Shown here: one piece after another, positions 9,631 through 30,347 of the stretch | How positions within the stretch are numbered: position 1 is the first letter of the stretch | How the letters are laid out: every line of letters starts with the position of its first letter | NCBI RefSeq assembly: GCF_028368995.1 | Contig: NZ_JAQNDL010000003.1 | Span: forward strand, 128,001 to 192,000 | Length of the DNA: 64,000 nucleotides | Reading direction: 5' to 3' | From: Nannocystis bainbridge | GTDB lineage: Bacteria; Myxococcota_A; Polyangia; Nannocystales; Nannocystaceae | Program-made: the position numbers and the translations under genes | The notes under the pieces: model-generated | The model's input: the letters and a program-made list of their open reading frames with translations, nothing else | Database searches by the model: none | Told to the model about the DNA's origin: nothing

Positions 9631-10869
9631 ATGGACGACACGCACACATCGGCTCGAGGCAGGTTTACGCAGGCAGCTCGGCGGATGCGTGCGAGGTCAA
9701 GTACGGCGGTGCTGCTGGCCTGTATCGGCGCGGCGGGCTGCGACGAGCGACAGGCGGACGCGGCGAAGGCGGAGCCGACGGTCGGTGAAACGGCGGCGCT
9801 CGCGGCGGCGCTCGACGAGGCGGTCGCCAAGGCGATGGCAACGGGCAGCCCCGGGATGGTGGTGGCCGTCGGACGCGGCGACCAGGTCGTGTTCGCCAGG
9901 GCCTACGGTCTCGCGAACCTCGAGGACGAGGTCGCGGTCGCGGTCGACACCGTGTTCCCGATCGCGTCGCTCACCAAGCAATTCACGGCGGCGGCGATCC
10001 TGCTGCTCGTCGAAGAGGGCAAGGTCGGGCTCGACGACCTGCTGTCGCGCTTCGTGCCGGAGGTGCCGCAGGCGCACCGCGTCACGGTCGCGCAGGCGCT
10101 CGTGCAGACGTCCGGGATCGCCGATTACGCGGAAGATCGCGCGGGGGAGCACCTCAAATCGGTGCGCCGCACGCCCGAGGAGATGGCGAGCTGGATCGCC
10201 GGCTTGCAGCCGCCGTTCGCGTTCGAGCCGGGCTCGTCGTGGGGATACAGCAATTCCAACTACGCGCTGCTCGGACTCGTCATCGCGCGCGCGAGCGGCG
10301 AGTCCTATCCGTCGTTCCTGGCCCGGCGCTTGTTCGCGCCGGCGGGTCTGGAGCACACGGCGTTCGACGATCCGGCCGACGTCGTCCCGCGACGAGCGCG
10401 AGGGTATCGCGCCAGCAAGACCGAGCCCGGGCGCTACCACAACGCCGACTGGATCAGCCCGACGATGCCCGGACCGGCGGGAGGACTGCGCTCGACCGCG
10501 GGCGATCTGCTGCGCTGGCACGCGGCGCTGTTCGGCGGGCGGATCCTGGCCCCCTCGAGCCTCGCGCAGATGACAATTCCCGGGCGGCTGGCCGACGGGC
10601 GCACCACGAAGGCGGCGATGCCCGCGCCGATGCAGGCGGCGTGGGGCTCCGACTACGCGATGGGCGTTCTGGTCGGCTCGCCGGACGGACGGGACCGGGT
10701 CTGGCACTCCGGTGACATCGACGGCTTCTCGTCGTGGGCCGCGTATTACCCGGACCGTCGGATCGGCATCGTCATCCTGCAGAACAGCCAGTCGGCGGAG
10801 CGCAACGAGGCGGCGATCGAGCGGATCGTGCTCGACGCCCTCGGAACAGCGCCCCGCGCGGGCGAATGA
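9631..10869 (+). CDS. Serine hydrolase, beta-lactamase/AmpC-like family
   Basis: SxxK (ASLTKQF), YxN (YSNSNY), WHSG; lipoprotein-like signal (AAGC). True start may be 9685. Confidence 0.88.
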   Translation: MDDTHTSARGRFTQAARRMRARSSTAVLLACIGAAGCDERQADAAKAEPTVGETAALAAALDEAVAKAMATGSPGMVVAVGRGDQVVFARAYGLANLEDEVAVAVDTVFPIASLTKQFTAAAILLLVEEGKVGLDDLLSRFVPEVPQAHRVTVAQALVQTSGIADYAEDRAGEHLKSVRRTPEEMASWIAGLQPPFAFEPGSSWGYSNSNYALLGLVIARASGESYPSFLARRLFAPAGLEHTAFDDPADVVPRRARGYRASKTEPGRYHNADWISPTMPGPAGGLRSTAGDLLRWHAALFGGRILAPSSLAQMTIPGRLADGRTTKAAMPAPMQAAWGSDYAMGVLVGSPDGRDRVWHSGDIDGFSSWAAYYPDRRIGIVILQNSQSAERNEAAIERIVLDALGTAPRAGE

Positions 10870-10968
10870 CGGCGCTCGCGTTCGCGGCGGCCGGTGTCGA
10901 GACGGCGCCGGGGTCGGCGGCGCCGACGATGCGACGGCTCGCGGGGCGTGTGGTACCCTGCGGCCTTC

Positions 10969-12321
10969 GTGCGAGTTGAAAGCGCCACCGAGCCGCACCC
11001 GCAGCGCAGCGGACGTCCGCTCTCGCCGGGCGACCTCGTCGCCGATCGCTACCGCATCGTCCGGGCGCTCGGGCGCGGCTCCTTCGGGCACACCTACCTC
11101 GCCGTCGACACCGCCGCCGGCGACCGCGAGGTCGCGGTCAAGCAGCTGCGCACCGACGGGGACAGCGGCTGGAAGGCGTTCGAGCTGTTCGAGCGCGAGG
11201 CCGCGGCGCTGCGGTCATTGCGTCACCACGGGATCCCCGAGATCTTCGATCACCGGCGCGAGACCGCCGGCGGCGCGCTGACGGCCTACCTGGTGATGGA
11301 GTACATCGAAGGGGTCTCGCTCGAGCAATGGATCGACGATGGCGCCAGCCTCGACCCGGCCGCGCTGCTGCGGGTGGCGCTCGGCCTGCTCGACATCCTC
11401 GAATACCTGCACGCCCGCGTCCCGCCGGTGCTGCACCGTGACATCAAGCCCGCGAACGTCGTCCTCCGCCCTGACGGCGCGCCGACGCTGGTCGACTTCG
11501 GCGCCGTGCGCACGGTGTTCCGCGCGGCCGAGGAGGGCGGCTCGACGGTGGTCGGAACTTTCGGCTACATGCCGATCGAGCAGACCATGGGTCAGGCCAG
11601 CCCTGCCAGCGACCTGTACGCCGTCGGGGCGACGCTGCTCCACCTGATCACCCGTCGCCCGCCGACGCAGTTCGCCTCGCGCGACGGCGTGATCGAGGTG
11701 CCTGCCGAATTGCCGGGCGGACCCGTCGTGCGCGGGGTGATCGCGCGGCTGCTCGCCCCGATCGCGTCGGCCCGCTATCAGTCGGCGAGGGAGGCCCGCG
11801 AGGCGCTGCTCGCCCCGGTCCTGGGCGCCGCGGCGGCGTCGCAGAGCGTCGCGCTCGCGCCGATCCCCCCGACGACGCTGGCCCTGCCGCCGACCCCCCG
11901 GGCGCTCGCGGGGGAGCTCGGTACCCGCTTCGAACGGGTGACCCTGTCGCCCATCCGCCTGCTGTTCTCCGACCTCCACCCGTCGCAGCCACTCTCGCTG
12001 GCCCAGCGCAGCTTGATGCTGCTGCTCGGGCTGATGTCTCTGGGCATCGCCCCGCTCATCTTCTGGTTCACGTGCCGTGCGCGGCGCACCCGGGCCCACC
12101 CCTTCTTCGTCCACGGCGTGCCGGTGTCCGGGCTCATCTTGCAGGTGCAGAGGACCGAGTGGATCCAGGTCACCTACGAGTTCGTGCACGCCGGCGCCAC
12201 CCATCGCGGCGTCGACACCATCATCCCGGCGGTGGCCGGACGCTGGCAACCCGGCGATGCGATCGAGCTGCTGGTACTGCCCGAGCGCAACCACGACAGC
12301 ATCATCGTCTCCAGCGCCTGA
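10969..12321 (+). CDS. Ser/Thr protein kinase with C-terminal membrane anchor
   Basis: LGRGSFG, VAVK, HRDIKPAN, DFG, GTFGYM. GTG start placed 9 nt after TACCCT. Confidence 0.9.
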   Translation: MRVESATEPHPQRSGRPLSPGDLVADRYRIVRALGRGSFGHTYLAVDTAAGDREVAVKQLRTDGDSGWKAFELFEREAAALRSLRHHGIPEIFDHRRETAGGALTAYLVMEYIEGVSLEQWIDDGASLDPAALLRVALGLLDILEYLHARVPPVLHRDIKPANVVLRPDGAPTLVDFGAVRTVFRAAEEGGSTVVGTFGYMPIEQTMGQASPASDLYAVGATLLHLITRRPPTQFASRDGVIEVPAELPGGPVVRGVIARLLAPIASARYQSAREAREALLAPVLGAAAASQSVALAPIPPTTLALPPTPRALAGELGTRFERVTLSPIRLLFSDLHPSQPLSLAQRSLMLLLGLMSLGIAPLIFWFTCRARRTRAHPFFVHGVPVSGLILQVQRTEWIQVTYEFVHAGATHRGVDTIIPAVAGRWQPGDAIELLVLPERNHDSIIVSSA

Positions 12322-12381
12322 CCTCGCATCCGCGACGCGGCTGGTGATTGACGGCCGGCACGGTCCGGCGGACGCTGAACT

Positions 12382-12471
12382 CCGGCACCGGCCACGACTC
12401 GTGGTCCAGGGCCCACGATCTGTCCGTCGGCCACGACATCGATTCACGACCGCTCGATCGCTACGAGCAAT
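12382..12471 (+). pseudogene. Decayed duplicate of the esterase 3' end (direct repeat copy 2)
   Basis: Translates GTGHDSWSRAHDLSVGHDIDSRPLDRYEQ versus GTGHDSWSKTYDLSAGHDIYSWLLERYKQ in 5860-6966. Intergenic, with no gene body. Confidence 0.85.
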
Positions 12472-12617
12472 CACTCGCGCCCGCCAATACACATTATCAC
12501 GACACGCCCGCCAGGACGGCCGCGCGCGCCGCATCTGCACCAGCGGAGGCCCGGCGCCGGCCGGCGCGCGTTTTCGTGGTATCGGCCGCGGCCCTCTCGT
12601 GGGTATGATCGACGGCC

Positions 12618-15557
<2,940 letters not shown>

Positions 15558-15878
15558 CGCTATTTACAGGTGACTCGCTGCGAGTCGAGGGCTGACCTCG
15601 ACCGCGGCGGAGCGAGCCTTCGGCACTCGCTGCGGCGCGCTGCGTCGGCCCGCGGGCCGCGACTCGCCCATCCGCCTCATCGCCCTCGTTTCCCCTTCGG
15701 GTCGCCCCCGAAGCCACGTCGGCCGCGATCTCGCGCATTGCGTCATATGTCCCGAAGGACATCTCGAATCGACGTTCACCGCGCCCGGGTGCGCGCTCGC
15801 CCGTGGGTGCCCGGGGAGACACGTCGACGCACGCATCGGCGGGCAATTGTTCCGCCGCCTGCTGACGCTCTGGTTTGT

Positions 15879-17897
15879 ATGCCCAGCACGCGAAAGTTCC
15901 TGTCCGCCTGCACCGCCCTCACGCTCGCTGCCGCGCCCGCAGCGGCCGGAGCCGCCTCGGTGCGGGTCAACGTCCAGGTCCCGTACGACATCCAGACCAA
16001 GACCTTCGACCTCGAGATGCTCGAGTACCAGAACCTGCAGCCGGTGTTCTACCGCCCGTTCGACATCCCCTACGACACCCTCGAGCCGATGCTCGACCAG
16101 CTGCTCGAGGACGTCGTCGGCCGCCACCACGAGTTCTACATCAAGTGCACCGGCCTCGGCATCGACGAGCTGTGCCCCGACACCGAGGTCGACGTCTTCC
16201 TCCACTCGAAGCTGCGGTTCACCAAGAAGAACCAGCCCAAGCTGACCCAGCTGGGCCCGGCCGCGGACAACAAGTTCCGCCTCGCGATCGACACCCAGGT
16301 CCGGATCGACCTCGACGCCCGGATCAAGCACGAGACCGGCATCTGGTACTCGAACAGCGAGACGGTCGAGCTGTGGGTCAAGATCGGCGCGCGCGCCAGC
16401 GTCGACCTCACGCTGTGGCCGACCCCGAAGGCCGAGAACCTCAAGGTCGAGCTCAAGAAGGAGGGCGGGGACGTCGTCATCCATGGCCTCGAGGAGCAGA
16501 TCATCGCCGCCGGCGCGATCGTCGGCGGCGTCACCCTCGGCCCGCTCGGCGCGGCGCTCGGCGCGATCCTCGGGGCCATCGGCGCCGACGCGGCCAACGA
16601 CGCCATCATCGACGTCATCAACGACGCCCTCACCGACCAGATCAACGCCGCCAACGTCCTCCTGCGCGAGCACGTGCAGGGGCTGATCGACCCCGCGATC
16701 GCGCAGGCCGTCGACTACCGCAATCAAGCGCTCAACACCAAGATCCCCCGGCTCGACATGACCATCGCCCAGGCGCTGGCGCTCAGCCCCGTCAGCCTCG
16801 ACGTGCGCACCTCCATCAAGAACGACGCGCTCGCGCTGGCCGCCACCGCCCGCATCGACCCGACCGGCAAGGGCAAGAGCCTCTCGGGCTTCTTGCGCTT
16901 CCCCAAGTCGAAGTGCAACTACATGGAGGGCGGCAACAAGACCGTCGGTTACTTCCAGATCCCGACCGAGGTCGTGCCGATGAACACCGACCTCGCGGGC
17001 AAGCCGTGCGCCTCGATCGTGTCGGCCTCGACCTTCGCCCGCTCGACCTACCTCGGCGAGAGCCCCAACCGCGTGCTCCACACCGGCGACCCGGCCGACC
17101 ATTTGCCGAGCTGGCAGTCGACCGGCACCGTCAGCACCAGCGGCAACGTGGTCGAAAAGGCCGACTACTACGAGTGCCCCTACACCCTCGGCAACCTGCC
17201 GAACGCGGCGATCCTCGAGCTCGCCACCGTCAAGGACTCGGTGCTGCACGAGCGCCTCGACCTCGGGGTGTTCCGCGCCCGCTTCCTGTTCGCCGCGGCG
17301 CTCAACCCGCTGAAGCTGTTCGATGCCAGGGGCAAGCTGCTCCCGGGCCCGCTGGTGTTCGGCGGCAAGGGCCCGAAGACCGTCGACGACTGCCCGAGCT
17401 ACGCCGGGCGCGGCAGCGGCCTGCGGCCCAACAAGCTCGAGCAGCTCAAGGACAAGTTCGACCCCGATACCTGCCCGACCTGCGGCCTGCTCGACGTATT
17501 CAACCACCTCGACCTGATCTCGAACCCGGCCGAGAAGGTCGTGCTCGAATCGGTGATCGACAAGGCCGGCATCACCAAGAAGTATGACCAGGTGCAGCAG
17601 CAACTGGCCAGCGAGGGCGCGCTCCAGAGCGTGCAGCGGCTCCAGAAGGTGCTCGACTCCGGCGTGATCGGCCGCGCCTGGGACGCCGTCGACAAGGCCC
17701 GCGCCAAGGTCGGCAACCTCAGCCCCAAGGGCGTCACCGTCAAGCAGGTCGGCACCGCGGCCGCGCGCAAGAAGTCCATCAAGGTGTTCGACGGCACCAA
17801 GGCCGTGAAGATGACCAGCGTGCGCCTCAAGGACAGCGCCCTGCCGACCGCCAAGGTCGAGGTCTTGGTGACGAAGGGCAAGAAGGCCGGCAAGTGA
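15879..17897 (+). CDS. Hypothetical secreted protein with Gly-zipper-like hydrophobic segment and Lys-rich tail
   Basis: Signal peptide MPSTRKFLSACTALTLAAAPAAAGA and strong coding bias from ATG 15879; no family recognised. Confidence 0.75.
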   Translation: MPSTRKFLSACTALTLAAAPAAAGAASVRVNVQVPYDIQTKTFDLEMLEYQNLQPVFYRPFDIPYDTLEPMLDQLLEDVVGRHHEFYIKCTGLGIDELCPDTEVDVFLHSKLRFTKKNQPKLTQLGPAADNKFRLAIDTQVRIDLDARIKHETGIWYSNSETVELWVKIGARASVDLTLWPTPKAENLKVELKKEGGDVVIHGLEEQIIAAGAIVGGVTLGPLGAALGAILGAIGADAANDAIIDVINDALTDQINAANVLLREHVQGLIDPAIAQAVDYRNQALNTKIPRLDMTIAQALALSPVSLDVRTSIKNDALALAATARIDPTGKGKSLSGFLRFPKSKCNYMEGGNKTVGYFQIPTEVVPMNTDLAGKPCASIVSASTFARSTYLGESPNRVLHTGDPADHLPSWQSTGTVSTSGNVVEKADYYECPYTLGNLPNAAILELATVKDSVLHERLDLGVFRARFLFAAALNPLKLFDARGKLLPGPLVFGGKGPKTVDDCPSYAGRGSGLRPNKLEQLKDKFDPDTCPTCGLLDVFNHLDLISNPAEKVVLESVIDKAGITKKYDQVQQQLASEGALQSVQRLQKVLDSGVIGRAWDAVDKARAKVGNLSPKGVTVKQVGTAAARKKSIKVFDGTKAVKMTSVRLKDSALPTAKVEVLVTKGKKAGK

Positions 17898-18164
17898 TCG
17901 CATAACGACGGGTCGTGAACATCGAAATCGCCTGCCCGGCGGCCGACCCGGCCGCCGAGCAGGCGTCATTTCGTGTTCACCAACTATCGCCATTCACCAC
18001 ACCTGGGACTCGCCGGCGAATATCCACAGTCTGCCGCGCTCGCGGCGTCGAGCTTCCCCCCCGTTCAGACCCCGCAGCAATCCTTGCGCCCCGCGGAAGA
18101 CCGCGCCCTCCGCGCGACGCCGATTCTCGCAACGGATCGCCCTCGCCTGGCGACTACCGCCACC

Positions 18165-18944
18165 ATGGGTCAGTCCGAGCAGGGTAGCGGGGTGCGGGCG
18201 TTGTTCGCCGCCTGGGCGGCCGCCGAGAGCGACGAGGCCGCGCTGGCGGGCCTGGCCGGGCTGCTCGCCGGCCCCGAGACCAGCGACGCCGGGGCGAGCT
18301 TGCGACGCCTGTGGCCCCCGCCCGCGCTCTCCACGGCGGAGCTCGCCCCCGCGCCCGCCGCTCGCCCCCGCGACCCCGCGCTCGAGCGGGCCATCGCCAC
18401 CGCGAGCGCGTGCGTCGGTCGCCTCGCCTCGGTCGACTCCGGCCACGTCCGGGCCCTCGCCACCGCCTGGCTCGTGCGCCCCGACCTGGCTGCCACCATT
18501 CGCAAGCCGCTCCTGCCCTGCCTCGCGCAGCTGACCCGCGGCGAGCGCAGCTTGCAGCTCGAGCTCGCCGGCGTCACCCCCGTGGCGGTGCGCGAGGTCC
18601 TCTACGTCGCCCCCGATTGCGACCTCGCGCTGCTGCGGGTCGCCGCGCAGCCGAGCTTCATCGCCCTCGCCCCCGGCGTCGCCCACGGTCACGAGCTGGC
18701 CGCGATCGACTGTAGTGATTCTCCGGAATCACAGGCCGGCGAGGCGCTGCCCGGCGGCCTGCGCCTGGTCCAGGGTCGGGTCCAGGAGGTCTCCTCGGTG
18801 CTGCTGCGCCACGACTGCGCGGGCCGTCCCGGCGGCGTGCTGCTCGATCTGGCCTCGGGCCAGGCGATCGGCCTCACCGTCGGCGGTCACGCGTCGGTGC
18901 CCGGCTGGCTGGTCCGCGAGCGGATCGAGCGGCTCACGCGATGA
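18165..18944 (+). CDS. Catalytically inactive trypsin-like protease paralog
   Basis: Aligns along its length with 22469-23332, but TNRH is TIRK and HDCTTLGGSSGG is HDCAGRPGG. Start placed at ATG 18165. Confidence 0.75.
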   Translation: MGQSEQGSGVRALFAAWAAAESDEAALAGLAGLLAGPETSDAGASLRRLWPPPALSTAELAPAPAARPRDPALERAIATASACVGRLASVDSGHVRALATAWLVRPDLAATIRKPLLPCLAQLTRGERSLQLELAGVTPVAVREVLYVAPDCDLALLRVAAQPSFIALAPGVAHGHELAAIDCSDSPESQAGEALPGGLRLVQGRVQEVSSVLLRHDCAGRPGGVLLDLASGQAIGLTVGGHASVPGWLVRERIERLTR

Positions 18945-18956
18945 CGGTCGCCCGCC

Positions 18957-19574
18957 TCACCGCGACGCCACGAGCTGGGCCCGCAGCCCGGCCGCCCATT
19001 GCTCGAGCCCGGAGATCGTGCTCTCCATCTCCGCCGCGCTGGCCTCGAGCCCACGAATCGCCGCCTCGAGCTGCTGCTTGGCCCGCCGCAGGCGGCTGCG
19101 CGCCGTGTCCTCCGGCACCCCGAGGAACGCCCCGAGCTCCGGCCCGCTCATGCGCTCCCAATAATAAAGCTCGAGGATCACCTGCGACGCGACCGGGATC
19201 TGCCGCAGCCCGTGCAGCAGCAGCCGCTGCTCCGCGTGCGCCGCCAGCAGCGACGTCGGGCTCGATCCCAGATCGACCAGCGACAGCTTCTCGAGGTCGA
19301 GCTCCTCCGGCGCCCGCCGGTTGCGGCGCAGGTGGTCGCGCAGGACGTTGTGGGCGATCGCAAACAGATACGTGCGAAACGAGGCGTCGCCGCGGAACCG
19401 GTCGCGGCCCTCCACGCAGCCGATGAAGGTCCGCTGCACGAGGTCCTCGGCCTGCTGCTCCACCTTGTTGCGAAAGAACCTGCGCACGGCGTCGAAATAG
19501 CGGTCGAACAACGTACTGCCCGCCTGGCGATCGCCGGCCCGCCAGGCGGTGAGGAGCTCCTGATCGCTCGACAT
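18957..19574 (-). CDS. ECF-type RNA polymerase sigma-70 factor
   Basis: sigma2 (AEDLVQRTF, FRTYLFAIAHN) and sigma4 (LELYYWE..ELGAFLGVPEDTARSRLRRAK). Confidence 0.93.
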   Translation of the reverse strand: MSSDQELLTAWRAGDRQAGSTLFDRYFDAVRRFFRNKVEQQAEDLVQRTFIGCVEGRDRFRGDASFRTYLFAIAHNVLRDHLRRNRRAPEELDLEKLSLVDLGSSPTSLLAAHAEQRLLLHGLRQIPVASQVILELYYWERMSGPELGAFLGVPEDTARSRLRRAKQQLEAAIRGLEASAAEMESTISGLEQWAAGLRAQLVASR

Positions 19575-19652
19575 GGCGCCACTCTACCACGAGGGCCAGG
19601 CCGCGAAACCCGCTGGCTGACGGACCCGCCCCTCGGAGACACTACCCCGGCC

Positions 19653-22466
<2,814 letters not shown>

Positions 22467-22468
22467 GC

Positions 22469-23332
22469 TCAAATCGAGCCCTCCAGCTGCGCCAGCCGCT
22501 GCTGCACCACCCACCCCGGCACCCCGAGATTGACGCGGCGGTCGCGTGATTCGCCGAAGTTGAGGCCGATCACCGATCCGCGGACCAGGTCGACGATCAC
22601 CCCGCCCGAGCTGCCACCGAGCGTGGTGCAGTCGTGCTCGAGCAACGTGTCCGACGTCGACACCAGGCGCCCGAGCGAGATCCGCTTGAACCCGCGGCCC
22701 TCGCGGTCGAACCAGCCGTCCCCGAAGATCTGCTGGTACTCGGGCTCCGCGTAGCCGCCCTCCGCGTGGCTCGGGAAACCGATCACCGCCACGGGATTGG
22801 CGGTGACGATCGAATCGACGACGACCAGCCCGACCTGGGGCGCCCCGCGCTGCTTGACTCGCAAGAACGCCAGGTCGTGGATCGGGTCGATGTAGAGCAC
22901 CCGGGTGACCGGGCAGTGGAGCACCGCGGAACCGTCGGCCTCGGCGCTCAGGTTCACGCGCAACGTCCGGGCGCCGCGCTGCACGTCGTCGAGGAGCGAC
23001 AGGATCGTGTGGCGATTGGTCACCGCCACGTCGGGACGGATCAACCATGCCGAGCCGCACTGCGTCAGCGGCCCGAGCTCGGGGCACTCGAGTCGGCCGA
23101 CCGCCCCCACCATCGCCTCCAGATGCCGTCTGGCCGCGTGGACCACCGCGCGCCAGGCCGGCTCGGGCGGCAGCGCGAAGCTCCCGTCGCGGACCGTCAG
23201 CGGGGCCGGGAACCACTGATGGACGAGCTCCAGCCCGTCCGCCTCGGCCGCGGTCAGCGTCTGCAGCGGCTCGCCGGGCGGCGCGGCGAGGCCGACCTCG
23301 TGACTCTCCAGGGTGTCCTCGGACGTCGTCAT
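22469..23332 (-). CDS. Trypsin-like serine protease (cytoplasmic, intact triad)
   Basis: His in TNRH, Asp in HDLAFL, Ser in HDCTTLGGSSGG; no signal peptide. Start may be 23376 or further upstream. Confidence 0.88.
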   Translation of the reverse strand: MTTSEDTLESHEVGLAAPPGEPLQTLTAAEADGLELVHQWFPAPLTVRDGSFALPPEPAWRAVVHAARRHLEAMVGAVGRLECPELGPLTQCGSAWLIRPDVAVTNRHTILSLLDDVQRGARTLRVNLSAEADGSAVLHCPVTRVLYIDPIHDLAFLRVKQRGAPQVGLVVVDSIVTANPVAVIGFPSHAEGGYAEPEYQQIFGDGWFDREGRGFKRISLGRLVSTSDTLLEHDCTTLGGSSGGVIVDLVRGSVIGLNFGESRDRRVNLGVPGWVVQQRLAQLEGSI

Positions 23333-23526
23333 CTGCGTCGCTCCTCCGGCCTTCGTCTCTTCGGGTGATAGTCGCATCGGCATCCCCTTCCGTGCATCTA
23401 CACCGCGAGATCGATCATTTGTCGCGACGGCGTGAACGGTTCGCCGACGTCTTGGCACTACCGGTTCACAGCGCGACGGCGTCGGCGATGTCCGCCGGGC
23501 CGGCGCGTCACAGGAGTTGTATTGTC

Positions 23527-23925
23527 ATGGCAGTCACATGGACTTTGAAGGATAGCTCGGGGGCCAATCTCAGCACGCAGCCGACCTCGACCGGCACGCT
23601 CGCGCTGACCTTCAACAACAGCGGCTATCCCTACTACGCCCCCGGCGAGATCATCACCGAGGTCCTCGCCGAGGTCGACAGCACCGGCCCGGTGACGATC
23701 ACGCTATCGCCGCAGAACGAGGGCTATTACCTCGACGAGAGCCGCAGCGACCCGCAGGAGCTGCCCTCGTCCCACGGCGGCGTGATGTCCTGGTCCCAGA
23801 GCGGCCCCGTCACGACCCTCACCTTCACCGCGCCCGGCACCGTCAGCAACGAGTGGTCCTGGGGCTTCGGCGGCCTGACCCCGCCGGTCGGGCTGAAGAT
23901 CAAGGTGCGCGTGCGGCGGGCCTGA
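23527..23925 (+). CDS. Hypothetical 132-aa beta-rich protein with basic C-terminus
   Basis: Coding-like GC3 bias from ATG 23527; ends [10 protein letters not shown]. Confidence 0.7.
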
Positions 23926-24025
23926 CGATCCGACGCCGCGAGGCGAGCGAGGCGCGCGGAACCTGCTCTTTAAGCCAGGTCATCGCGCGTCGCGCTCGCC
24001 TCGCCGACCTGTTACCATCCGCCGC

Positions 24026-25018
24026 GTGTCTGCGCTCCCGGTCCTCGACCTCTCGCCGCTCCGACACGACCCTGCCGCCGCCGACGCGCTCGCGCGGGCC
24101 ATCGCCGCCGCGTGCCGCGACAGCGGCTTCTTCTACGTCGTCGGCCACGGCCTCGACCCAACCTTGCTCGCCCGCCTCGAGGCCCTGAGCCGCCGCTTCT
24201 TCGCCGCCGCCGACGCCGACAAGCAGGCCCTCGCGATGCACCACGGCGGCCGCGCCTGGCGCGGGTGGTTCCCGCTCGGCGGCGAGCTCACCTCGGGCCA
24301 GCCCGACCTCAAGGAGGGCCTGTACTTCGGGACAGAGCTGCCCGCCGACCACCCGCGCGTGCGCGCCGGCGTCCCGCTGCACGGCGCCAACCTGTGGCCG
24401 GCGTGGCTGCCGGAGCTGCGCCCGGTCGTGCTCGCCGTCATGGCGCAGCTGGCCGAAGTCGCCCAGCTGGTGCTCGAGGGCGTGGCCCGCAGCCTCGGCC
24501 TCGCGCCCGAGTGGTTCCGCGTGCACTACACCGGCGGGACGGGCGAGCCGACGCAGCTGTTCCGGATCTTCCACTACCCGGCGACGCCGCAGCCGGGCTG
24601 GGGCGTCGGCGAACACACCGACTACGGCCTCCTGACGCTGCTCGTGCAGGACGACGTCGGCGGCCTGCAGGTCAAGACCCCGCGCGGATGGATCGACGCC
24701 CCGCCGCTGCCCGGGGCGCTCGTGTGCAACATCGGCGACATGCTCGACCGCCTCACCGGCGGCTGGTACCGCTCGACCCCGCACCGCGTGCGCGCCTCGA
24801 CCGCGCGCGATCGCCTGTCGTTCCCGTTCTTCTTCGACCCCGCGTGGGACGCCGAGATCGTGCCCCTGCCGCGCGCCGCCGACCTGCCCGACGACGCCGC
24901 CGAGCGCTGGGATTCCGCCAGCGTGCACGCCTTTCGCGGCACCTACGGCGAATACCTGCTCGGCAAGGTGGCCCGCGTCTTCCCCGCCCTGCACGCCGCC
25001 GTAAAGGCCGAGATGTGA
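24026..25018 (+). CDS. 2-oxoglutarate/Fe(II) oxygenase, isopenicillin N synthase family
   Basis: [14 protein letters not shown] (HxD), NIGDML, HRV, RLSFPFF. Confidence 0.93.
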
Positions 25019-25708: not shown

Positions 25709-26971
25709 TCAGCGAGGACTGGCGACCTTGAAGGTCGGCGGGCGGCTGCCGACGCGCCGGCGCGACCACACGGTCCATTCCCACTGGCTGACGCCGGCGA
25801 GGTCGTCGCCTTCGGCCGTGATCTCGCCGGACTCGTAAAGGGCGACCAGCGTGTCGAGCAGCGACTCGATGTCGTAGGCGACGATCTGGCGGTCGTTGTC
25901 GTCGTGCCAGAAGCTGACGAGCTCGTCGGCCTCGCCGCCGAACTCACCGCCGGGGTCGAGGCAGATGTCGTTGCCCGACGGATCGTGCAGCAACGGCAGC
26001 CAGGCTGGGTTCCACCACTGGGGCTCGTCGGCGAACCACTTGCGGCAGTCGGTGCGCCGGGCCACGGCCTCGTCGATCGAATAGAGCGAGTAGACGAACG
26101 CGATCGGCATCAACTCGCCGCCGCCGTCGTGCCAGGCCCACAGCTGGCGCAGCGCCGGCGGCAGCGGACGGCCGAGCTCGCGCTCGCAGGCGTCGAGCCG
26201 CGCCGGGTCGGCGCCCGGCCGCAGCTCGGCGTGGACGGCGGGGGTATGAGTCGCGAGCCAGCGCTCGAGGCGAACGAGCAGGCCGTCGACGCGGGCGCGC
26301 TGGGCCGCGGCCTCGCGCTCACGCCACGCGAGCACCTCGGGGATCCACGGCGGCGGCTCGTCGGGCGGCTCCGGCAGGCGCTCGGCCCACCGCCAGATTG
26401 CGTCGAGGTGAGAGAGGTACTGCGACTCGATCAGGGCCTCACGGGCCTCGCCGTCGACGCGGCGTAGCTCGTGGTCGAACGCGGCGATCCGCAGGTGCGT
26501 CAGCATATCGTCGTCGCGCGCGTCCGAGCCGCGCCCGAGGAATGCGTCGTTGCGATCCTCGCGATCCTGCTCGACGCGCTTGACGAGCTCGGCCAGCATG
26601 CGGCGGCGCGGGCCGGGGCGCCGCGCCTCGATGTAATTCGAGAAAGCGGCGCACTGCTCCGGCGAGCCCTCCCCGTCGAGCACGCGCAGCATGTGGGCCG
26701 TCTGCGCGGGGTCAGCGAGGCCTCTCGCGCAGGCGCGCCGGGCCCTGAGCCGGAGCATCAAGAAGCGGGCACGCACGATGGTCCCGCGTTCGGGTTGAAC
26801 CATGCTCGCGCCCCACAGGTGCTGCTCGTCGGGCCTCGGCCACACGCCGGCGAGGAACGGGTAGCCGACCTCCTCCATCGTGAAGCGGCCGGTCGTCGGA
26901 TCGAGCCGGCACGCTTCGGTGAGCTCGAGGCCCTCGATGATCAGGTCGAGGTCGGGCCAGTGGATCTTCAT
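25709..26971 (-). CDS. SMI1/KNR4 (SUKH) domain protein with uncharacterised N-terminal domain
   Basis: LRPGADPARLDACERELGRPLPPALRQLWAWHDG..WLPLLHDPSGNDICLD. Start placed at ATG 26971. Confidence 0.82.
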   Translation of the reverse strand: MKIHWPDLDLIIEGLELTEACRLDPTTGRFTMEEVGYPFLAGVWPRPDEQHLWGASMVQPERGTIVRARFLMLRLRARRACARGLADPAQTAHMLRVLDGEGSPEQCAAFSNYIEARRPGPRRRMLAELVKRVEQDREDRNDAFLGRGSDARDDDMLTHLRIAAFDHELRRVDGEAREALIESQYLSHLDAIWRWAERLPEPPDEPPPWIPEVLAWREREAAAQRARVDGLLVRLERWLATHTPAVHAELRPGADPARLDACERELGRPLPPALRQLWAWHDGGGELMPIAFVYSLYSIDEAVARRTDCRKWFADEPQWWNPAWLPLLHDPSGNDICLDPGGEFGGEADELVSFWHDDNDRQIVAYDIESLLDTLVALYESGEITAEGDDLAGVSQWEWTVWSRRRVGSRPPTFKVASPR

Positions 26972-27212: not shown

Positions 27213-30200
27213 TCAGCGAGCCCGGCGCCGGCGCAGCGTCAGCAGCAGCAGCGTCAGCGCCGACAGCCCGGCCCCGCCGGGCCCGTCCTGGCGGCAGCCG
27301 CAGCCGCTCTCGTCGGTCGCGCCGCCGCCCGTGTCGCTGTCCGTGTCGCCGCCCGAGCCCGTCGAATCACTCGCCTCGGTGTCGCTGCCCGCGTCCGTCG
27401 CCGAGGTGGTCGGCTCCGGCCCGGTCTCGCTCGAAGCACCCGTCGTCGGCAATTGCCCGCTCGAGCCGTCCGAGTCCGACCCGCCGCTCGTCGTCGAGTC
27501 ACCGTCCACCGAGCAATCGGCCTCGCAGCCGTCGCCGCCCGCCGCGTTGCCGTCGTCGCACTGCTCCCCGCTGTCGACCACCCCGTCGCCGCAGCCGGCG
27601 TCCGAGCAGTCGGTGCGGCACGCGTCGGCCGCCTCGTCGCTGTTGTTCGCGCCCTCGTCGCAATCCTCGCCGACGCTGACGATCCCGTCGCCGCACACCG
27701 CCGCCGGCGCGTCGACCACCCCGACCACGCACAGCGCGTCGAGCGTCCAGCCGCCCATCTCGAGCCCGCCGTCGCTGCGCAGCTCGTACTTCAGCGTCAC
27801 CGCGTCGTTCACCACCGACGCCGTCAGGTCGACGTCGTGGAACCGCCACTCGCGGTCCGTGTGGTGCGTGCTCGCGTCGTTCATCATCAGGCTGGCGAAG
27901 TTGGTCCACACCGGCTCGTCGTTGGCGTAGATGCGCGCGCGGTCGAAGAACCCGTCCTCGATGTTGAGCCAGCGGCGGTACTGCAGGCGCACCTGCGAAT
28001 AGCCGGTCGTGTCGATCACCGGCGACTGCGCGAAGTTGGTCTTTTCCGACTGATACGTCCCGTTGAAGTTGCCGCCGCCGAGGTCGTTGCCGAACACGCG
28101 CGTCCCGTCGAACGCCGCCTGCGGGTCGCCCGACGCCGTCGGCGAGAGCGGCTCCTGCCACATCCAGTCGTCGGCGCCCTCGCCTTGCTGCCCCATCGAC
28201 AGCCCGTGCGTCCAGCCGTCGGCGGCCGGGTCGGACTCGAAATCGGTGCAGTAGATCTCCTCGACCGCGCCGACGAAGAACTCGTAGAACGGATCGGCCG
28301 CGTTCTCCGGGTACTGCAATTCGGTCGCGTCCGCGAACGTGATCTTGACCTGGTACTGCACCACGCTGCCGGCCGGCTGCTGCGGGATCTTGGCCGTGAT
28401 CTGATCGGGCGCCACGTCCATGGCGATCACCCCGCCGACGTCCTGCTGCTCGCGCAGGCGCCACGTCAGCTCCGCCGACTCGATCGCCCCGCCGCTGCAC
28501 TGCCCGCCCGCGCCGTCGACCGCGACCGACACCGTGTACTCGGCCAGCTGCGGCAGCGCCACCCCCGGCGCCTCGACGTCGACCCCGAGCTTGAACAGCC
28601 CGTGCTTGGCGAACGCGCTGTTGATCAGGCACTGGTTGGGCGTGCCGTTGGCGAGGTCGCCGTCGTCGTCGTCGGCCGCCAGCGCCTCGAAGTACATGCT
28701 CGGGATGTCGACCGCGCGGCGGATCGACTCGTAGTAGATGTGATCGGCGTGGGCCACCGCGCCCGGCCCCTGGTCCTCGACCAGCGCCTTGCGCAGGTCC
28801 CACAGCGCGCCGGCGATGATGAGGCCCGTGATGTGCGTGTCGCCGTCGACGTCGTCGGGCCACACCGCCTCGCTGCCGTTGGGGTCGATGTGGCGCAGCG
28901 GCCCGGGGTCGTTGAGGAAGAAGCCGATGCCCATCGCCGGGTCGTCGACCACCGTCGCCGCCAGGTAGTCGCTCACGCCCTCGGACAGCGCCGGGTCGAA
29001 GTTACCGACGCCCTGGATGATGGCGTGGTCGTGCACCCCGTGGCCGTACTCGTGATAGACGATGTCGGCCACCCGCCCGGTGTTGTTGCACTGGTTGCTC
29101 TGGCGGAAGAAATTGATGTTGCCGTCGTAATAGGCGTTGCAGCTCTCGTTGATGTTGACGGTCGCGGCGAGCTGCTGGGCGACGAACTCGAAGGTGGGGT
29201 CGATCTGGCGCACGTAGTCGATCACGTGGTTGGCGTGCACGAACGTCGAGATCTGCGCGTCGACCAGCTCGTCGTTGGCCGCGTTCCAGTTGACCGTCTG
29301 GTTCGGCTGCAGGTTGAGGTTCGCGGTCGCCTCGTTGCCCGCGTCGTTGGCGACCGTCACCTGCGTGCCGCTGGCCCGCGTCGTCACCATGGTCGCATTG
29401 TTGCCGTTCCACATCACGTCGCCGGTCGGCGAGCTGGTGACGTTCATCCCGCCCACCGTCAGCGCCGCGCGGTTGGCCGGCCAGTTCTGCCGCTCGCCGC
29501 CGGGCTCGCGCACTGGCGCGTTGTAGGCCACCTTGCCGCTGGCGAACAGCAGCGTCTGCTTGCGCGCCACCGGCTCGCCCGTGGCCGCGTCGACGTAGAC
29601 CCGCCAGCGCCCCAGCGGCGCCGTGGTCGCCAGCTCGACCGGCACCACCGTCGCGTACTCGACCCCGCCCCCGCGCACCAGCGGCAGCACCACCGCCTCG
29701 TGCGCGGCCTCGAAGGAGACTGTCCCCGGGGACAGGTCGCGCTCCAGCCACTCGCTCGCGGCCGTGCGCGCCTGGGCGGCGCCCACCTGGCGGACCGCCG
29801 GCGCCGGCACGTGCGGCAGCGCCTCCGAGCCGATCATGAACAGGCGGTCGTTGCGGAAGCGGAAGCTGACCTGCCCGCCCTCGACCGCCACCCCGCGGAC
29901 CCGCTGCACGAACCCGAGTGTGCGCATTCCGCCGCTCTCGACATTCGCCACCAATGTGAAGTCCGCCGCCGACGCCCCCGGCGCCAGCAGGCCGACGTGA
30001 CGGGCCAGGAACGCCCGCGCGAGCCGCTCGGCCGCCACGGGCGAACCCGCGCTCCCGGGCGCCGCGATCCCGGCGCCCCAGATCCGCCGCACCACGTCGG
30101 TATCGCGGTCCCACACCGCCCACGTCTGCGGCCCCATCTCGGCCACCAGCCGCGCCCACGCGCCCCCGTGCCGCGCCGGCGCCTGGTACCACGTCAGGTC

Positions 30201-30347
30201 GGCCAGCGCCCGCACCGGAGCCCCCCGGGCGACCTCCACGGCGGGCCGCCGCGCGTGCGCAGCAGGGGTCTGAACCGCGCTCGCGGTCGGGCTGACGGCC
30301 ATCAAAGTGGCCGCGGTGAGGGTGGCAATTCCGTGGGCGAGTCTCAT
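27213..30347 (-). CDS. Secreted zinc metallopeptidase (M4/M36-like gluzincin) with Cys-rich repeats and MYXO-CTERM
   Basis: HEYGH plus SEGVSDY, propeptide region, CGDG..CD repeats, GCGC..hydrophobic..RRRRAR tail; SD GGAGGAG. Confidence 0.88.
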   Translation of the reverse strand: MRLAHGIATLTAATLMAVSPTASAVQTPAAHARRPAVEVARGAPVRALADLTWYQAPARHGGAWARLVAEMGPQTWAVWDRDTDVVRRIWGAGIAAPGSAGSPVAAERLARAFLARHVGLLAPGASAADFTLVANVESGGMRTLGFVQRVRGVAVEGGQVSFRFRNDRLFMIGSEALPHVPAPAVRQVGAAQARTAASEWLERDLSPGTVSFEAAHEAVVLPLVRGGGVEYATVVPVELATTAPLGRWRVYVDAATGEPVARKQTLLFASGKVAYNAPVREPGGERQNWPANRAALTVGGMNVTSSPTGDVMWNGNNATMVTTRASGTQVTVANDAGNEATANLNLQPNQTVNWNAANDELVDAQISTFVHANHVIDYVRQIDPTFEFVAQQLAATVNINESCNAYYDGNINFFRQSNQCNNTGRVADIVYHEYGHGVHDHAIIQGVGNFDPALSEGVSDYLAATVVDDPAMGIGFFLNDPGPLRHIDPNGSEAVWPDDVDGDTHITGLIIAGALWDLRKALVEDQGPGAVAHADHIYYESIRRAVDIPSMYFEALAADDDDGDLANGTPNQCLINSAFAKHGLFKLGVDVEAPGVALPQLAEYTVSVAVDGAGGQCSGGAIESAELTWRLREQQDVGGVIAMDVAPDQITAKIPQQPAGSVVQYQVKITFADATELQYPENAADPFYEFFVGAVEEIYCTDFESDPAADGWTHGLSMGQQGEGADDWMWQEPLSPTASGDPQAAFDGTRVFGNDLGGGNFNGTYQSEKTNFAQSPVIDTTGYSQVRLQYRRWLNIEDGFFDRARIYANDEPVWTNFASLMMNDASTHHTDREWRFHDVDLTASVVNDAVTLKYELRSDGGLEMGGWTLDALCVVGVVDAPAAVCGDGIVSVGEDCDEGANNSDEAADACRTDCSDAGCGDGVVDSGEQCDDGNAAGGDGCEADCSVDGDSTTSGGSDSDGSSGQLPTTGASSETGPEPTTSATDAGSDTEASDSTGSGGDTDSDTGGGATDESGCGCRQDGPGGAGLSALTLLLLTLRRRRAR

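Follow-up and report, generated by a model that had tools for sequence, protein, structure and literature searches.

We report a five-gene block in a Nannocystis genome that encodes a sigma factor and a membrane kinase together with two versions of a protease, one active and one dead, and a small protein. Because four of these genes share a conserved promoter-like motif, we read the five as one unit, and they look like one self-contained signal-to-proteolysis module. On balance, and with modest confidence, we favour a reading in which a kinase-gated ECF sigma would serve a mini-regulon of four promoters.

Organization of the locus

The window analysed is the whole stretch of 64,000 nucleotides in which the block lies. 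A first-pass annotation had proposed five genes in mirrored order, and the ORF listing and codon-position GC indicate that all five are real and the order exact. From left to right they encode a pseudo-protease (18165-18944, plus strand, 259 aa; ORF listing with codon-position GC), an ECF sigma factor (18957-19574, minus strand, 205 aa; ORF listing, Pfam and NCBIfam), a Hanks-type Ser/Thr kinase (19653-22466, plus strand, 937 aa; ORF listing and Pfam), an active serine protease (22469-23332, minus strand, 287 aa; ORF listing and Pfam), whose start was set by comparison with database orthologues and by the ribosome-binding site GGAGGAG, and a small beta-rich protein whose family Pfam does not include (23527-23925, plus strand, 132 aa; ORF listing). 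GC3 is 0.85-0.92 in the block genes, and along the small-protein gene it rises to 0.93-1.0 (codon-position GC).

The intergenic gaps measure 12, 78, 2 and 194 nt, and direct reading of the sequence returned the values previously given for the two convergent ends: 12 nt from stop to stop between the pseudo-protease and sigma genes (TGA-CGGTCGCCCGCC-TCA) and 2 nt between the kinase and active-protease genes (TGA-GC-TCA). The sigma and kinase genes are divergent and 78 nt apart. [quoted passage not shown] We did not find a STAND, MoxR-vWA, Hachiman or other NTPase-type sensor in the five genes and the 31 other window proteins scanned, nor mobile-element genes at the locus, whose position is chromosomal and syntenic.

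A promoter-like motif shared by four genes

The motif tGAMCGG-N17-ACTAYC was found just upstream of the pseudo-protease, the kinase, the active protease and the small protein, each time in the right orientation and with a 17-nt spacer. Upstream of the pseudo-protease it reads ACGG-N17-ACTACC (18132..18158, plus strand), an exact pattern match present at the same place in L001-L004; because only 6 nt separate its end from the ATG at 18165, it implies that the pseudo-protease mRNA would be leaderless or near-leaderless. The kinase copy, ACGG-N17-ACTACC (19620..19646, plus strand), likewise ends 6 nt before the ATG (19653), and its core positions are invariant (12/12) in five genomes. On the minus strand, ACGG-N17-ACTATC (23367..23393) lies about 34 nt upstream of the active-protease start and is followed by GGAGGAG; it is present in 5/5 genomes, with one mismatch (ACTAAC) in L003. 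The copy belonging to the small protein, ACGG-N17-ACTACC (23436..23462, plus strand), lies 64 nt ahead of the ATG, and AGGAG precedes the start; relatives have CCGG instead of ACGG.

Six exact matches to the motif core occur in the 64-kb window, compared with 0.06 expected from shuffles, and none of 100 shuffles reached six. The two extra matches are intragenic, and the one of them lying in sequence that L001, L002 and L004 also have is not conserved in those genomes. Over five Nannocystis genomes the strict pattern is found at 19 of 20 sites, and the 20th has one mismatch. Motif core positions are invariant at 42/48, compared with 166/333 in the rest of the same intergenic DNA (five genomes), a comparison that is partly circular because the motif was discovered in these same regions.

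Both pattern matching and alignment showed that the shared motif is absent upstream of the sigma gene, indicating that the sigma is not autoregulated by it and counting against the four sites being a sigma regulon. For the sigma gene we make a weak call of a housekeeping-type candidate promoter, TTTCGC-N16-TAGAGT (19581..19608, minus strand), which ends 6 nt before the ATG; only its -10-like TAnnGT is conserved in the alignment, and a sigma-70-consensus scan of 17500-24500 returned no sites, not even this candidate; the lack of such promoters counts for the sigma-regulon reading. A typical ECF promoter has AAC in the -35 and CGT in the -10. The shared motif does not resemble it, a second point against the sigma-regulon reading. 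No group motif in the available part of the PMC7826278 supplement matched a few substrings of the shared motif.

The ECF sigma factor and its group

The sigma factor consists of sigma2 and sigma4 domains only, over about 200 aa, which places it among the ECF (group 4 sigma-70) factors. All its Pfam scores are above the cut-offs (Sigma70_r2 54.9, Sigma70_r4_2 32.4 and Sigma70_ECF 31.8 bits), and NCBIfam TIGR02937 gives 95.9 bits against a cut-off of 42.9. It is 91-93% identical across Nannocystis species (dN/dS 0.15) and, in the alignment, ends in a conserved tail of about 30 residues that its relative in L067, a Nannocystaceae MAG, also has. Kinase-associated ECF sigmas are numerous in myxobacteria, planctomycetes and acidobacteria, and phosphorylation can switch on those without an anti-sigma (EcfP/PknT, EcfK/PknS). 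The earlier statement that some ECFs are controlled by neighbouring Ser/Thr kinases finds support here, in that the pairing with a Hanks kinase and the lack of an anti-sigma match groups described in parts of PMC7826278, PMC8999054 and PMC13147305.

As in ECF43 (EcfP/PknT of Vibrio parahaemolyticus, EcfK/PknS of Xanthomonas citri), the sigma gene is adjacent to a gene for a transmembrane Hanks-type Ser/Thr kinase, with no anti-sigma gene. Membership of ECF43 was considered and rejected. In that group the DAED/DxxD of sigma2.2 is replaced by an uncharged QTTA/STTA with a conserved (phospho-)threonine (sections of PMC13147305 and PMC8999054), whereas sigma2.2 is QAEDLVQR in all five Nannocystis orthologues and VEDLVQD in the L067 relative. 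Because it keeps these acidic residues, and has no uncharged threonine motif, the sigma is not ECF43-like, and since QAED is kept, the ECF43 logic of a sigma "intrinsically inactive until phosphorylated" may not apply. ECF43 regulons concern polymyxin resistance or a type VI secretion system, while the candidate regulon in Nannocystis is a protease set. Ser/Thr residues (S104, S105, T107 and S108) lie at the end of the sigma2-sigma4 linker, LGSSPTSLL, as does T106 in EcfK (PMC13147305, in part). The patch, LG(S/A)S(P/A)TSLL, is conserved and short, with 3-4 Ser/Thr in 6 residues, a count for which the ECF283 source gives no threshold; the L067 relative has acidic residues at this position.

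ECF283 fits the sigma better than ECF43, as judged on the published description and features of the group, and the kinase encoded divergently alongside has a single membrane helix. At the time when ECF283 was defined, "Proteobacteria" took in myxobacteria. The available part of the PMC7826278 supplement reports ECF283 from "Proteobacteria", with a transmembrane kinase at position -1 or +2 and a promoter hint of CCTT in the -35 and AG in the -10, and describes neither a characterised member nor a protease regulon. Upstream of the Nannocystis sigma gene this hint was not found, except for the AG within TAGAGT. ECF54, from Actinobacteria, is similar in being an ECF without an anti-sigma among protease genes, namely subtilase, CHAT-TPR and carboxypeptidase-regulatory-like genes (PMC8999054 and PMC7826278 supplement, both in part), and L067 also has a CHAT protein. 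It differs in phylum, in protease families and in promoter motif (GTATCAG / CTCC; same part of the PMC7826278 supplement), and in these portions of the two sources no kinase is described for the group.

The membrane kinase

The kinase begins with a conserved 45-residue N-terminal segment, followed by the kinase domain, a membrane helix, a cysteine-containing domain and TPR repeats (Pfam domains Pkinase and TPR_12). Its translation contains VAVK, HRD and DFG, which we take to be the catalytic motifs, and one clear membrane segment at residues 323-341 (Kyte-Doolittle 2.01). Beyond this helix lie the conserved cysteines 350, 407, 427 and 466, adjoining the TPR part. The TPR domain is predicted to be periplasmic; since it lies past the single helix, next to the four cysteines, it could not contact cytoplasmic proteases, and the earlier idea that it binds them is not borne out.

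The active protease, its dead paralogue and the small protein

The active protease scores 55.8 bits with Trypsin_2 (Pfam cut-off 27.6) and has the intact His-Asp-Ser triad of a chymotrypsin-fold serine peptidase (H108, D153 and S242, invariant across a 26-sequence alignment). Its best PDB profile matches are glutamyl endopeptidases (E = 3e-11), and we predict a cytoplasmic trypsin-fold enzyme nearest to the V8/glutamyl-endopeptidase (S1B) group. The S1B enzymes (V8, Spl proteases, exfoliative toxins) are the closest solved structures (E = 3e-11 to 1e-7) and share the triad order and GxSGG motif. However, they are secreted, whereas the Nannocystis protease has no signal peptide by hydropathy, its N-terminal region of about 100 residues is specific to the family, and its HDC motif is invariant (alignment). 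Signal-peptide-like hydrophobicity is absent from both proteases, as had been claimed, and from the small protein (maximum 0.94; Kyte-Doolittle, 19-residue windows starting in residues 1-40).

BLASTP confirms that the two proteases are clear paralogues (32% identity over 251 residues, E = 1e-26). The dead copy reaches only 24.3 bits with Trypsin_2, under the 27.6 cut-off, and its triad is broken: TIRK replaces TNRH (His->Lys), the Asp is kept, and AGRPGG replaces TLGGSSGG (Ser->Pro, with a 3-residue deletion in the S1 loop). It is without 8 of the 22 residues invariant in the protease-family alignment and keeps the family fold without being an enzyme of the chymotrypsin-fold family. Because the Lys and Pro at the triad positions are conserved in 5/5 Nannocystis genomes, the frame is open in 4/5 and dN/dS is about 0.49, we regard it as a maintained pseudo-enzyme and not a decaying gene. 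A search for its homologues returned only proteins of Nannocystis spp. and of one further contig (7 matches including the window's own protein), and in a quick tree the active and dead groups fall on one side of a branch (SH-aLRT 92). The pair recalls caspase-8/cFLIP, by analogy only: an active and a catalytically dead paralogue are encoded together and the loss of catalytic residues is conserved across species, although the fold there is that of caspases and here that of trypsin.

The small protein had no match in Pfam, NCBIfam, PADLOC or PHROGs. Pfam contains models for Trypco1/2; we found no Pfam family shared at E <= 5 by the 24 small-protein members that would indicate kinship with Trypco1, Trypco2 or Pepco. 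The protein had been called an orphan, a label that does not stand: the family gave 29 profile matches, about 24 of them small proteins, and reaches beyond the genus. W112, L123 and a basic C-terminal strand, LKxKVRVKR, are conserved; this C-terminus looks like a structured amphipathic strand and not a disordered cleavable tail, and weak leads suggest that the fold is possibly an Ig-like sandwich. The protease and the small protein probably share three further contigs (4777, 10310 and 8337 nt), to judge only from equal sizes.

The protease family outside Nannocystis

We surveyed the best 80 of 222 confirmed protease-family loci, 76 of them outside Nannocystis. In 60 of these 76 the protease domain is fused to a nuclease, phospholipase-D or subtilase domain (Endonuclease_NS in 51, 3 of them also with Peptidase_S8; PLDc_2 in 8; TPR-S plus S8 in 1). 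The family occurs on 15 plasmids, 9 of them typed conjugative, has CHAT, S8 and EAD1-trypsin genes as neighbours and is patchily distributed across phyla; in L052, another ORF with two dead trypsin domains stands beside an active fusion. These fusions and contexts are consistent with the first-pass view that proteases of this type occur in conflict systems. The Nannocystis proteases themselves have no nuclease domain (Pfam). PADLOC gave no system-specific match: the kinase hit generic models only (C3a189, PD-T4-6 and mad6), the protease matches were weak (PDC-M35A at 2.7e-8, RT-Protease_XI), the sigma had a marginal GajB match (E = 0.008), and the dead copy had none.

Activation of a small protein by the trypsin-like protease encoded next to it is described for Pepco and EACC1 (PMC12642450, in part) and for Trypco (PMC7159879, in part), the latter paper also proposing inactive trypsin domains as dominant-negative parts. 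The Nannocystis block resembles such modules (Trypco-trypsin, Pepco, EACC1, trypsin-MBL nuclease) in having a trypsin-fold protease beside a small protein assigned to no known enzyme family, in its dead copy, and in the nuclease or phospholipase-D domains borne by relatives of its protease. It differs from the Trypco/Pepco type, where the protease is fused to or beside an NTPase sensor, in that the sensor would be a transcriptional kinase/sigma pair, and its small protein has no detectable Pfam relation to theirs.

Conservation of the neighbourhood

A check of gene-neighbourhood conservation, suggested with the first-pass annotation, gave a divided result. The block is present at 4/4 Nannocystis species loci and was found in this one genus only, whose genomes are collinear from about 12.4 to 30.5 kb (78-90% nucleotide identity); because both flanks are syntenic too, its conservation is weak evidence of linkage. 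Two of five genomes have frameshifts, in the pseudo-protease (L002) and the kinase (L004), which either come from faulty assembly or indicate that the component is dispensable. In the block genes, the sigma excepted, dN is 1.4-5 times that of the flanks (0.108-0.273 vs 0.058-0.075), a faster evolution, and dN/dS is below 1 for all genes compared. The window has three kinases in a span of 12 kb.

Outside Nannocystis, an ECF sigma and a kinase both lie within 10 kb of the protease at 3/76 loci (best 80 of 222), a count made with a sigma profile built from close relatives, which distant ECFs may escape. The protease stands with a sigma and a kinase at the 4/4 Nannocystis species loci and at these three, and does not at the other 73. 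L067 has, on one strand, an ECF sigma, a kinase-TPR, an unknown ORF, a family protease and a CHAT protein; in L013, an Acidobacteriota MAG, ECF sigma and kinase genes stand side by side, 1.8 kb away from a protease-nuclease fusion. Both are independent partial recurrences of the block.

Proposed mechanism and alternative explanations

In the explanation that we favour, an ECF sigma without an anti-sigma would be made from its own, different promoter and activated by the divergently encoded membrane Hanks kinase, whose periplasmic cysteine-rich/TPR ectodomain would sense an envelope or extracellular cue. We infer that the kinase phosphorylates the sigma, most likely in the Ser/Thr patch ending the sigma2-sigma4 linker, and that the activated sigma reads the four promoters tGAMCGG-N17-ACTAYC. 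Its regulon would comprise the kinase (positive feedback), the cytoplasmic V8-like protease, the dead paralogue and the small beta-rich protein. Because the four promoters would drive the protease, its dead paralogue and the small protein, the output would be regulated cytoplasmic proteolysis. We likewise infer what the protease may target: the small protein would be its likeliest partner, as substrate, latent effector or inhibitor, and the dead paralogue a likely competitor or modulator. Kinase-gated transcription coupled to a protease switch, as first proposed, gains from the shared motif and the maintained dead copy and loses from the restriction to one genus and the predicted periplasmic position of the TPR domain.

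It is possible, if unlikely, that the block is an anti-phage or anti-competitor conflict or programmed-death module, in which the kinase/sigma pair replaces STAND or MoxR-type sensors, the small protein is a latent toxic effector that the protease switches on, and the dead paralogue serves as decoy or brake. Elsewhere the protease family is mostly fused to killing domains, and its plasmid carriage, its CHAT/S8/EAD1-trypsin neighbours and its patchy phyla point the same way, as do the faster evolution (1.4-5 times the flanks) of the block genes bar the sigma, the published protease-activated small proteins and inactive-trypsin parts (PMC12642450 and PMC7159879, in part) and the L052 ORF with its two dead trypsin domains. 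The Nannocystis proteases, however, are without a nuclease and have no NTPase sensor nearby, the small protein lacks a Pfam match (0/24 members) and seems to lack a disordered cleavable tail, PADLOC gave generic matches only and PHROGs none, the locus is chromosomal and syntenic without mobile-element genes, and every dN/dS is below 1. Such a module would be a more specific version of the output stage of the favoured explanation. A quite unlikely extension is a new class of conflict or cell-fate module with a Hanks kinase and ECF sigma in place of cytoplasmic NTPase sensors. Here a cue from outside, be it phage adsorption, a predator, a competitor or a kin signal, would induce transcription of a latent cytoplasmic protease-effector set, the stand-alone Ig-like small protein would be effector or inhibitor of the protease, the pseudo-protease would set the threshold, and the arms would also interfere with each other through convergent transcription without terminators across the 12-nt and 2-nt gaps.

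Myxobacteria have many sigma/kinase pairs, and the block could be an ordinary pair among unrelated genes, its arrangement kept as the genus is young. The collinearity of about 12.4 to 30.5 kb among Nannocystis genomes, the three kinases within 12 kb and the rarity of the protease near a sigma and kinase (3/76 other loci) would all suit this, but the conserved shared motif, which is confined to this block, the tight packing with no space for other genes, and the partial recurrences in L067 and L013 make it improbable. The order of control might also be reversed, with the dead paralogue or the small protein holding the sigma inactive and the active protease freeing it. This agrees with the lack of a recognisable anti-sigma, with the conserved ~30-residue sigma tail, also in L067, as a docking or cleavage site, with the 12-nt convergence of the pseudo-protease gene on the sigma gene, and with the suggestion that ECF54 is regulated by protease neighbours (PMC8999054 and PMC7826278 supplement, in part). 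Yet the neighbouring kinase already gives a known control route, and the dead paralogue is limited to core Nannocystis, while protease and small protein seem to reach farther relatives. As a rule a sigma shares its transcript with its regulators, and here the sigma alone is without the shared motif. We regard this order as very doubtful.

In the available parts of PMC7826278, PMC8999054 and PMC13147305, only two kinase/ECF pairs, EcfP/PknT and EcfK/PknS, are characterised in detail, and a third, from Hyphomonas, is mentioned in PMC8999054; for kinase-linked groups other than ECF43, these sources give neither an activation mechanism nor a regulon. If true, the favoured explanation would show what a kinase-linked ECF outside ECF43 controls and which promoters it recognises, and would provide a bacterial active/dead trypsin-fold pair under common control and a tie between a transcriptional sensor and a protease domain otherwise fused to nucleases or phospholipases; if it fails, what is left is an ordinary sigma/kinase pair flanked by lineage-specific genes. 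The locus is a compact testable case, with one sigma, one kinase and four candidate promoters with a defined motif, and a candidate output that, besides the kinase feedback, is limited to the active protease, the dead copy and a single small protein. The promoter-like motif shared upstream of four block genes is new here.

A five-gene block conserved in Nannocystis

With a G+C content of about 70%, the window yields crowded lists of open reading frames (ORFs), and genuine frames were chosen by codon-position GC. Together with Pfam searches, these frames bear out both the span and the description of the five-gene block at 18165..23925 proposed in the first-pass annotation. The block consists of a pseudo-protease gene, here called the dead copy (18165-18944, + strand, 259 aa; Trypsin_2 at 24.3 bits, under the 27.6 cut-off); an ECF sigma factor gene (18957-19574, - strand, 205 aa; Sigma70 r2, r4_2 and ECF); a Ser/Thr kinase gene (19653-22466, + strand, 937 aa; Pkinase and TPR_12); an active protease gene (22469-23332, - strand, 287 aa; Trypsin_2 at 55.8 bits); and a gene for a small protein (23527-23925, + strand, 132 aa; no Pfam domain). 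Stop-to-stop distances agree with the claimed convergent gaps of 12 nt (18944-18957) and 2 nt (22466-22469). Both convergent pairs are without a terminator-like hairpin, and Rfam gave zero matches across the window.

Scanning species-representative genomes with an alignment of the protease family gave 232 pattern matches, of which 222 were confirmed and the best 80 of these 222 examined. Among these 80, four loci from other Nannocystis genomes (L001-L004; N. exedens, N. pusilla, N. punicea and Nannocystis sp.) carry the entire block in the same order. Their amino-acid identity to the window is 91-93% for the sigma factor, 80-89% for the small protein, 70-74% for the active protease, 68-78% for the dead copy and 52-64% for the kinase. 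The flanks of the block are also collinear in these relatives, so that its conservation within the genus is weak evidence of function.

In the relatives a second kinase-TPR gene (12618-15557 in the window) directly adjoins the dead copy; in the window only, a 2.5-kb insertion (about 15560-18077/18132) parts the two. None of the four other Nannocystis genomes has the inserted stretch (15560-18132), whose G+C content is below that of its flanks (~67-69% vs ~75%). It contains a 672-aa ORF (15879-17897) with a signal-peptide-like start and a weak DUF1269 match, which we rejected as a block member because it sits in this insertion.

Rates of change were estimated as pairwise Nei-Gojobori means over five genomes (the window genome and L001-L004). 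Because of frameshifts, the L002 dead copy entered with 170 codons and the L004 kinase with 775; the partial L002 sequence was left out of the second kinase, and the gene at 27213 was one genome short (n = 4). All genes compared are under purifying selection. The sigma factor is the most constrained (dN 0.033, dS 0.24, dN/dS 0.15), followed by the small protein (0.108, 0.32, 0.35), the active protease (0.142, 0.36, 0.39), the kinase (0.273, 0.59, 0.46) and the dead copy (0.146, 0.31, 0.49); four flanking genes gave dN 0.058-0.075, dS 0.17-0.30 and dN/dS 0.25-0.38. The non-sigma block genes thus evolve 1.4-5 times faster than their surroundings; an arms race would fit this difference, and so would a looser constraint.

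A promoter-like motif ahead of four of the five genes

Three intergenic regions were aligned across the five genomes, and repeated conserved blocks in them were turned into a pattern search. Every gene of the block except the sigma gene proved to have ACGG/CCGG-N17-ACTA(C/T)C upstream, on its own coding strand and with a spacer of constant length. The exact core occurs six times in the 64-kb window, vs 0.06 expected (100 shuffles; maximum of one per shuffle). The two extra matches, at 2989-3015 (- strand) and 6130-6156 (+ strand), are both intragenic and alone exceed that chance expectation; codon bias may explain them. The match at 6130-6156 falls in a Thr/Pro-rich linker whose DNA is common to L001, L002 and L004, yet has no match there. 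In L001-L004, all exact matches fall within the block. The strict pattern was recovered at 19 of the 20 expected sites (five genomes, four sites each), and the last one, at the active protease of L003, has one mismatch. The core is invariant at 42 of 48 positions vs 166 of the 333 remaining intergenic columns, a comparison that is partly circular, the motif having been discovered there.

The kinase and dead-copy genes have their ATG 6 nt beyond the end of the -10-like element, which suggests that these two mRNAs would be leaderless; the active protease and small protein genes have Shine-Dalgarno-like sequences. The motif is absent upstream of the sigma gene, where a conserved TAnnGT lies 6 nt ahead of the ATG. 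A sigma-70 consensus scan missed this element, and predicted no promoter in the block and one terminator-like site outside it. From these alignments we infer that the four motif sites are probably promoters read by the block's own sigma factor. A search of the accessible part of the PMC7826278 supplement with a few motif substrings returned no matching ECF group motif. Transcripts from the motif-bearing promoters would enter the sigma gene antisense, and those of the kinase and the active protease would collide; transcriptional interference is possible at both convergent ends.

The sigma factor and its kinase

According to the available parts of three papers, Ser/Thr kinases are associated with groups ECF43, ECF59-62, ECF217, ECF267 and ECF283, in which an anti-sigma factor is usually missing, EcfP and EcfK are phosphorylated by their respective kinases, and in ECF43 the acidic DAED/DxxD motif of sigma2.2 is swapped for an uncharged, threonine-bearing one (PMC7826278, PMC8999054, PMC13147305). 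The block sigma retains QAED in sigma2.2 and therefore does not fit ECF43 in this respect. With ECF283 it shares an adjoining transmembrane kinase, and the short Ser/Thr patch at its linker end (LGSSPTSLL) may correspond to the Ser/Thr-rich one described for that group. Compared by group description, it would be a better fit to ECF283 than to ECF43.

The kinase translation carries the catalytic motifs VAVK, HRD and DFG, and hydropathy indicates a single strong membrane segment (residues 323-341). Cysteines 350, 407, 427 and 466, conserved among the orthologues, come after this segment, with the TPR repeats beyond them. Given this placement, the TPR domain is predicted to be periplasmic, and therefore not a docking site for cytoplasmic proteases; the topology makes a TPR-protease contact, as had been proposed, unlikely. 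The best-conserved part of the kinase is its first 45 residues (window 19653-19787; 88% mean pairwise identity among orthologues, vs 72% for the kinase domain). In a small sample, this segment aligns with a sigma-paired kinase from outside the genus (locus L067), not with the unpaired paralogue at 12618-15557; it may be where the sigma factor docks. The kinase of Nannocystis sp. RBIL2 (L004, about 11148-13976) is cut to 840 aa.

The active protease and its dead copy

As the first-pass annotation had stated, the two proteases are paralogues (32% identity over 251 residues, E = 1e-26), and neither has a hydrophobic N-terminus that could be a signal peptide; hydropathy gave the same result for the small protein. 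The catalytic residues H108, D153 and S242 are invariant among 26 aligned members of the protease family. In the dead copy, Lys replaces the His, Pro replaces the Ser and three residues are deleted from the loop preceding the serine; overall, it lacks 8 of the 22 residues invariant in the family. These catalytic changes are identical in all five Nannocystis genomes compared. The frame is intact in four of the five and conserved in blocks; in N. pusilla Na p29 (L002, about 6922-7714) it is frameshifted after approximately residue 170, and intact copies are present in other N. pusilla records. On these grounds we rejected decay into a pseudogene as an explanation for the dead copy. The L002 frameshift and the L004 kinase truncation may be long-read assembly errors or genuine losses.

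A quick maximum-likelihood tree was built from 87 protease domains, without the broken L002 copy. One branch has all the Nannocystis sequences, five active and four dead, on the same side; its SH-aLRT support of 92 falls short of the 95 mark, and a long branch leads to the dead group. The topology would fit a duplication within the Nannocystis lineage, with long-branch effects possible. The nearest relatives of the active protease are in Nannocystis species (59-74% identity). A search for homologues of the dead copy returned seven matches, including the window's own protein, confined to Nannocystis spp. and one further contig. A comparison of the family profile with solved structures puts V8-type glutamyl endopeptidases, Spl proteases and exfoliative toxins closest, ahead of HtrA/DegQ.

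The small protein

The small protein had been considered an orphan; a profile search recovers relatives. Pfam, NCBIfam, PADLOC and PHROGs all came back empty for it, as did a tblastn search of plasmids, and its best match to a PDB sequence (E = 0.027) is unconvincing. When 1.84 billion representatives were searched with a profile built on the five orthologues, 29 proteins passed E <= 1e-3. Of these, about 24 are 111-148 aa long and have W112, L123 and a basic C-terminal strand in common. Pfam was run on four long, weak matches: P0074, P0077 and P0082 are repeat proteins in which it recognises PKD, Big_13 or cadherin domains, and P0071 gave DUF4443 alone, under cut-off. No Pfam family is common to the members. 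All relatives with organism names are Nannocystis, and the same profile run against the 80 loci matched in Nannocystis only (0 of 76 others). Three relatives (61-62% identity) agree with three protease relatives (48-60%) in the length of their longest contig, a hint that the protease/small-protein pair may have a wider range than the dead copy. No feature match came from the ESM Atlas; the structural neighbours of its model of the small protein (pLDDT 0.50) are Ig-like, an Inhibitor_I42 cluster at TM 0.57 among them. Such neighbours are of low confidence because of the model's pLDDT, and a possible Ig-like affinity is to be taken as a lead, not as evidence.

The protease family outside Nannocystis

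Among the best 80 of the 222 confirmed matches, 76 are from outside Nannocystis, and in 62 of these the frame runs at least 400 nt past the protease domain. The C-terminal extension has an Endonuclease_NS domain in 51 loci (three with Peptidase_S8 as well), PLDc_2 in eight, TPR-S plus Peptidase_S8 in one, and no Pfam domain in two. The 14 loci without such an extension include a two-trypsin-domain protein (L026) and a frame with an internal stop (L029). These fusions, with an N-terminal trypsin-fold protease bearing TNRH/HDC/GGSSG motifs, are widespread and phylogenetically patchy (examples are L006:1039-2982, L025:1-3324 and L024:9644-12544). They also occur on 15 plasmids (for example L081:4731-6833); the one on an Agrobacterium Ti plasmid has a CHAT protein and an S8 peptidase next to it. 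Our literature search found no published description of the family. Because the family elsewhere is mostly fused to killing domains, the Nannocystis proteases are, judged by their domain architecture, stand-alone derivatives of a domain that normally precedes a killing domain. At L052:11748-15207, an EAD1-trypsin gene neighbours a protease-nuclease fusion, as does an ORF whose two trypsin-like domains both lack catalytic residues; dead trypsin domains seem to accompany an active one independently here as well.

Sigma factors near these loci were searched with a profile of six sequences, which is narrow and may miss distant ECFs; it matched in L013, L067 and L076. A kinase-domain search matched in L005, L007, L013, L043, L067 and L076. 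In the three loci with both, Pfam confirmed the sigma and kinase matches that were checked. Conservation of the neighbourhood, proposed as a check in the first-pass annotation, was therefore found for the entire block in L001-L004, but outside the genus an ECF sigma and a kinase lie within 10 kb of the protease in only 3 of 76 loci, forming an adjacent pair in two (L013 and L067). The phyla of these loci are rich in sigma/kinase pairs, so this count cannot be read as an excess over chance. The most telling of the three is L067:3164-11796, from a Nannocystaceae MAG, where a sigma factor, a kinase-TPR, a 636-aa ORF, a protease of the family and a CHAT protein follow on one strand with coding-type GC3. 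The 636-aa ORF has no Pfam match; by eye only, it has caspase-like His and Cys motifs. L067 has zero copies of the Nannocystis motif, and none is evidently shared among its own upstream regions. Its sigma factor has acidic residues at the linker position, echoing the Ser/Thr or Asp/Glu reported, in the available part of the source, for most ECF43 members at the position of EcfK T106 (PMC13147305).

Interpretation of the block

The block is a lineage-restricted combination of kinase-associated ECF signalling and protease-plus-small-protein modules, both of known kinds. Its best reading, towards which we lean with some reserve, is a kinase-linked ECF sigma factor with a dedicated four-promoter protease regulon. 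This retains the kinase-linked sigma of the earlier interpretation and parts with its TPR-protease contact on grounds of topology. A further reading, by analogy with cFLIP, is that the dead copy might act as a switch on the active protease. The contexts of the protease family elsewhere are, in the available parts of PMC7159879, PMC12642450 and PMC12799240, typical of conflict systems; a conflict or death function of the Nannocystis block itself seems to us unlikely. [quoted passage not shown]

Other features of the window

Collinearity with L001, L002 and L004 is lost over 6973-12379, where a third Ser/Thr kinase gene (10969-12321) accompanies a hydrolase-methyltransferase fusion and a gene of the beta-lactamase family. 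Downstream of the block lie a SUKH-1 (SMI1/KNR4) family protein (25709-26971), whose family is known to supply immunity proteins against polymorphic toxins, and beside it a conserved 1030-aa protein with weak thermolysin/InhA-like matches only (27213-30305). Further on, the window encodes a 2007-aa bacterial alpha-2-macroglobulin (32717-38740), a 2885-aa hybrid NRPS-PKS with a thioesterase (51690-60347) and a baeRF family-10 (release-factor-like) protein (60421-61563).
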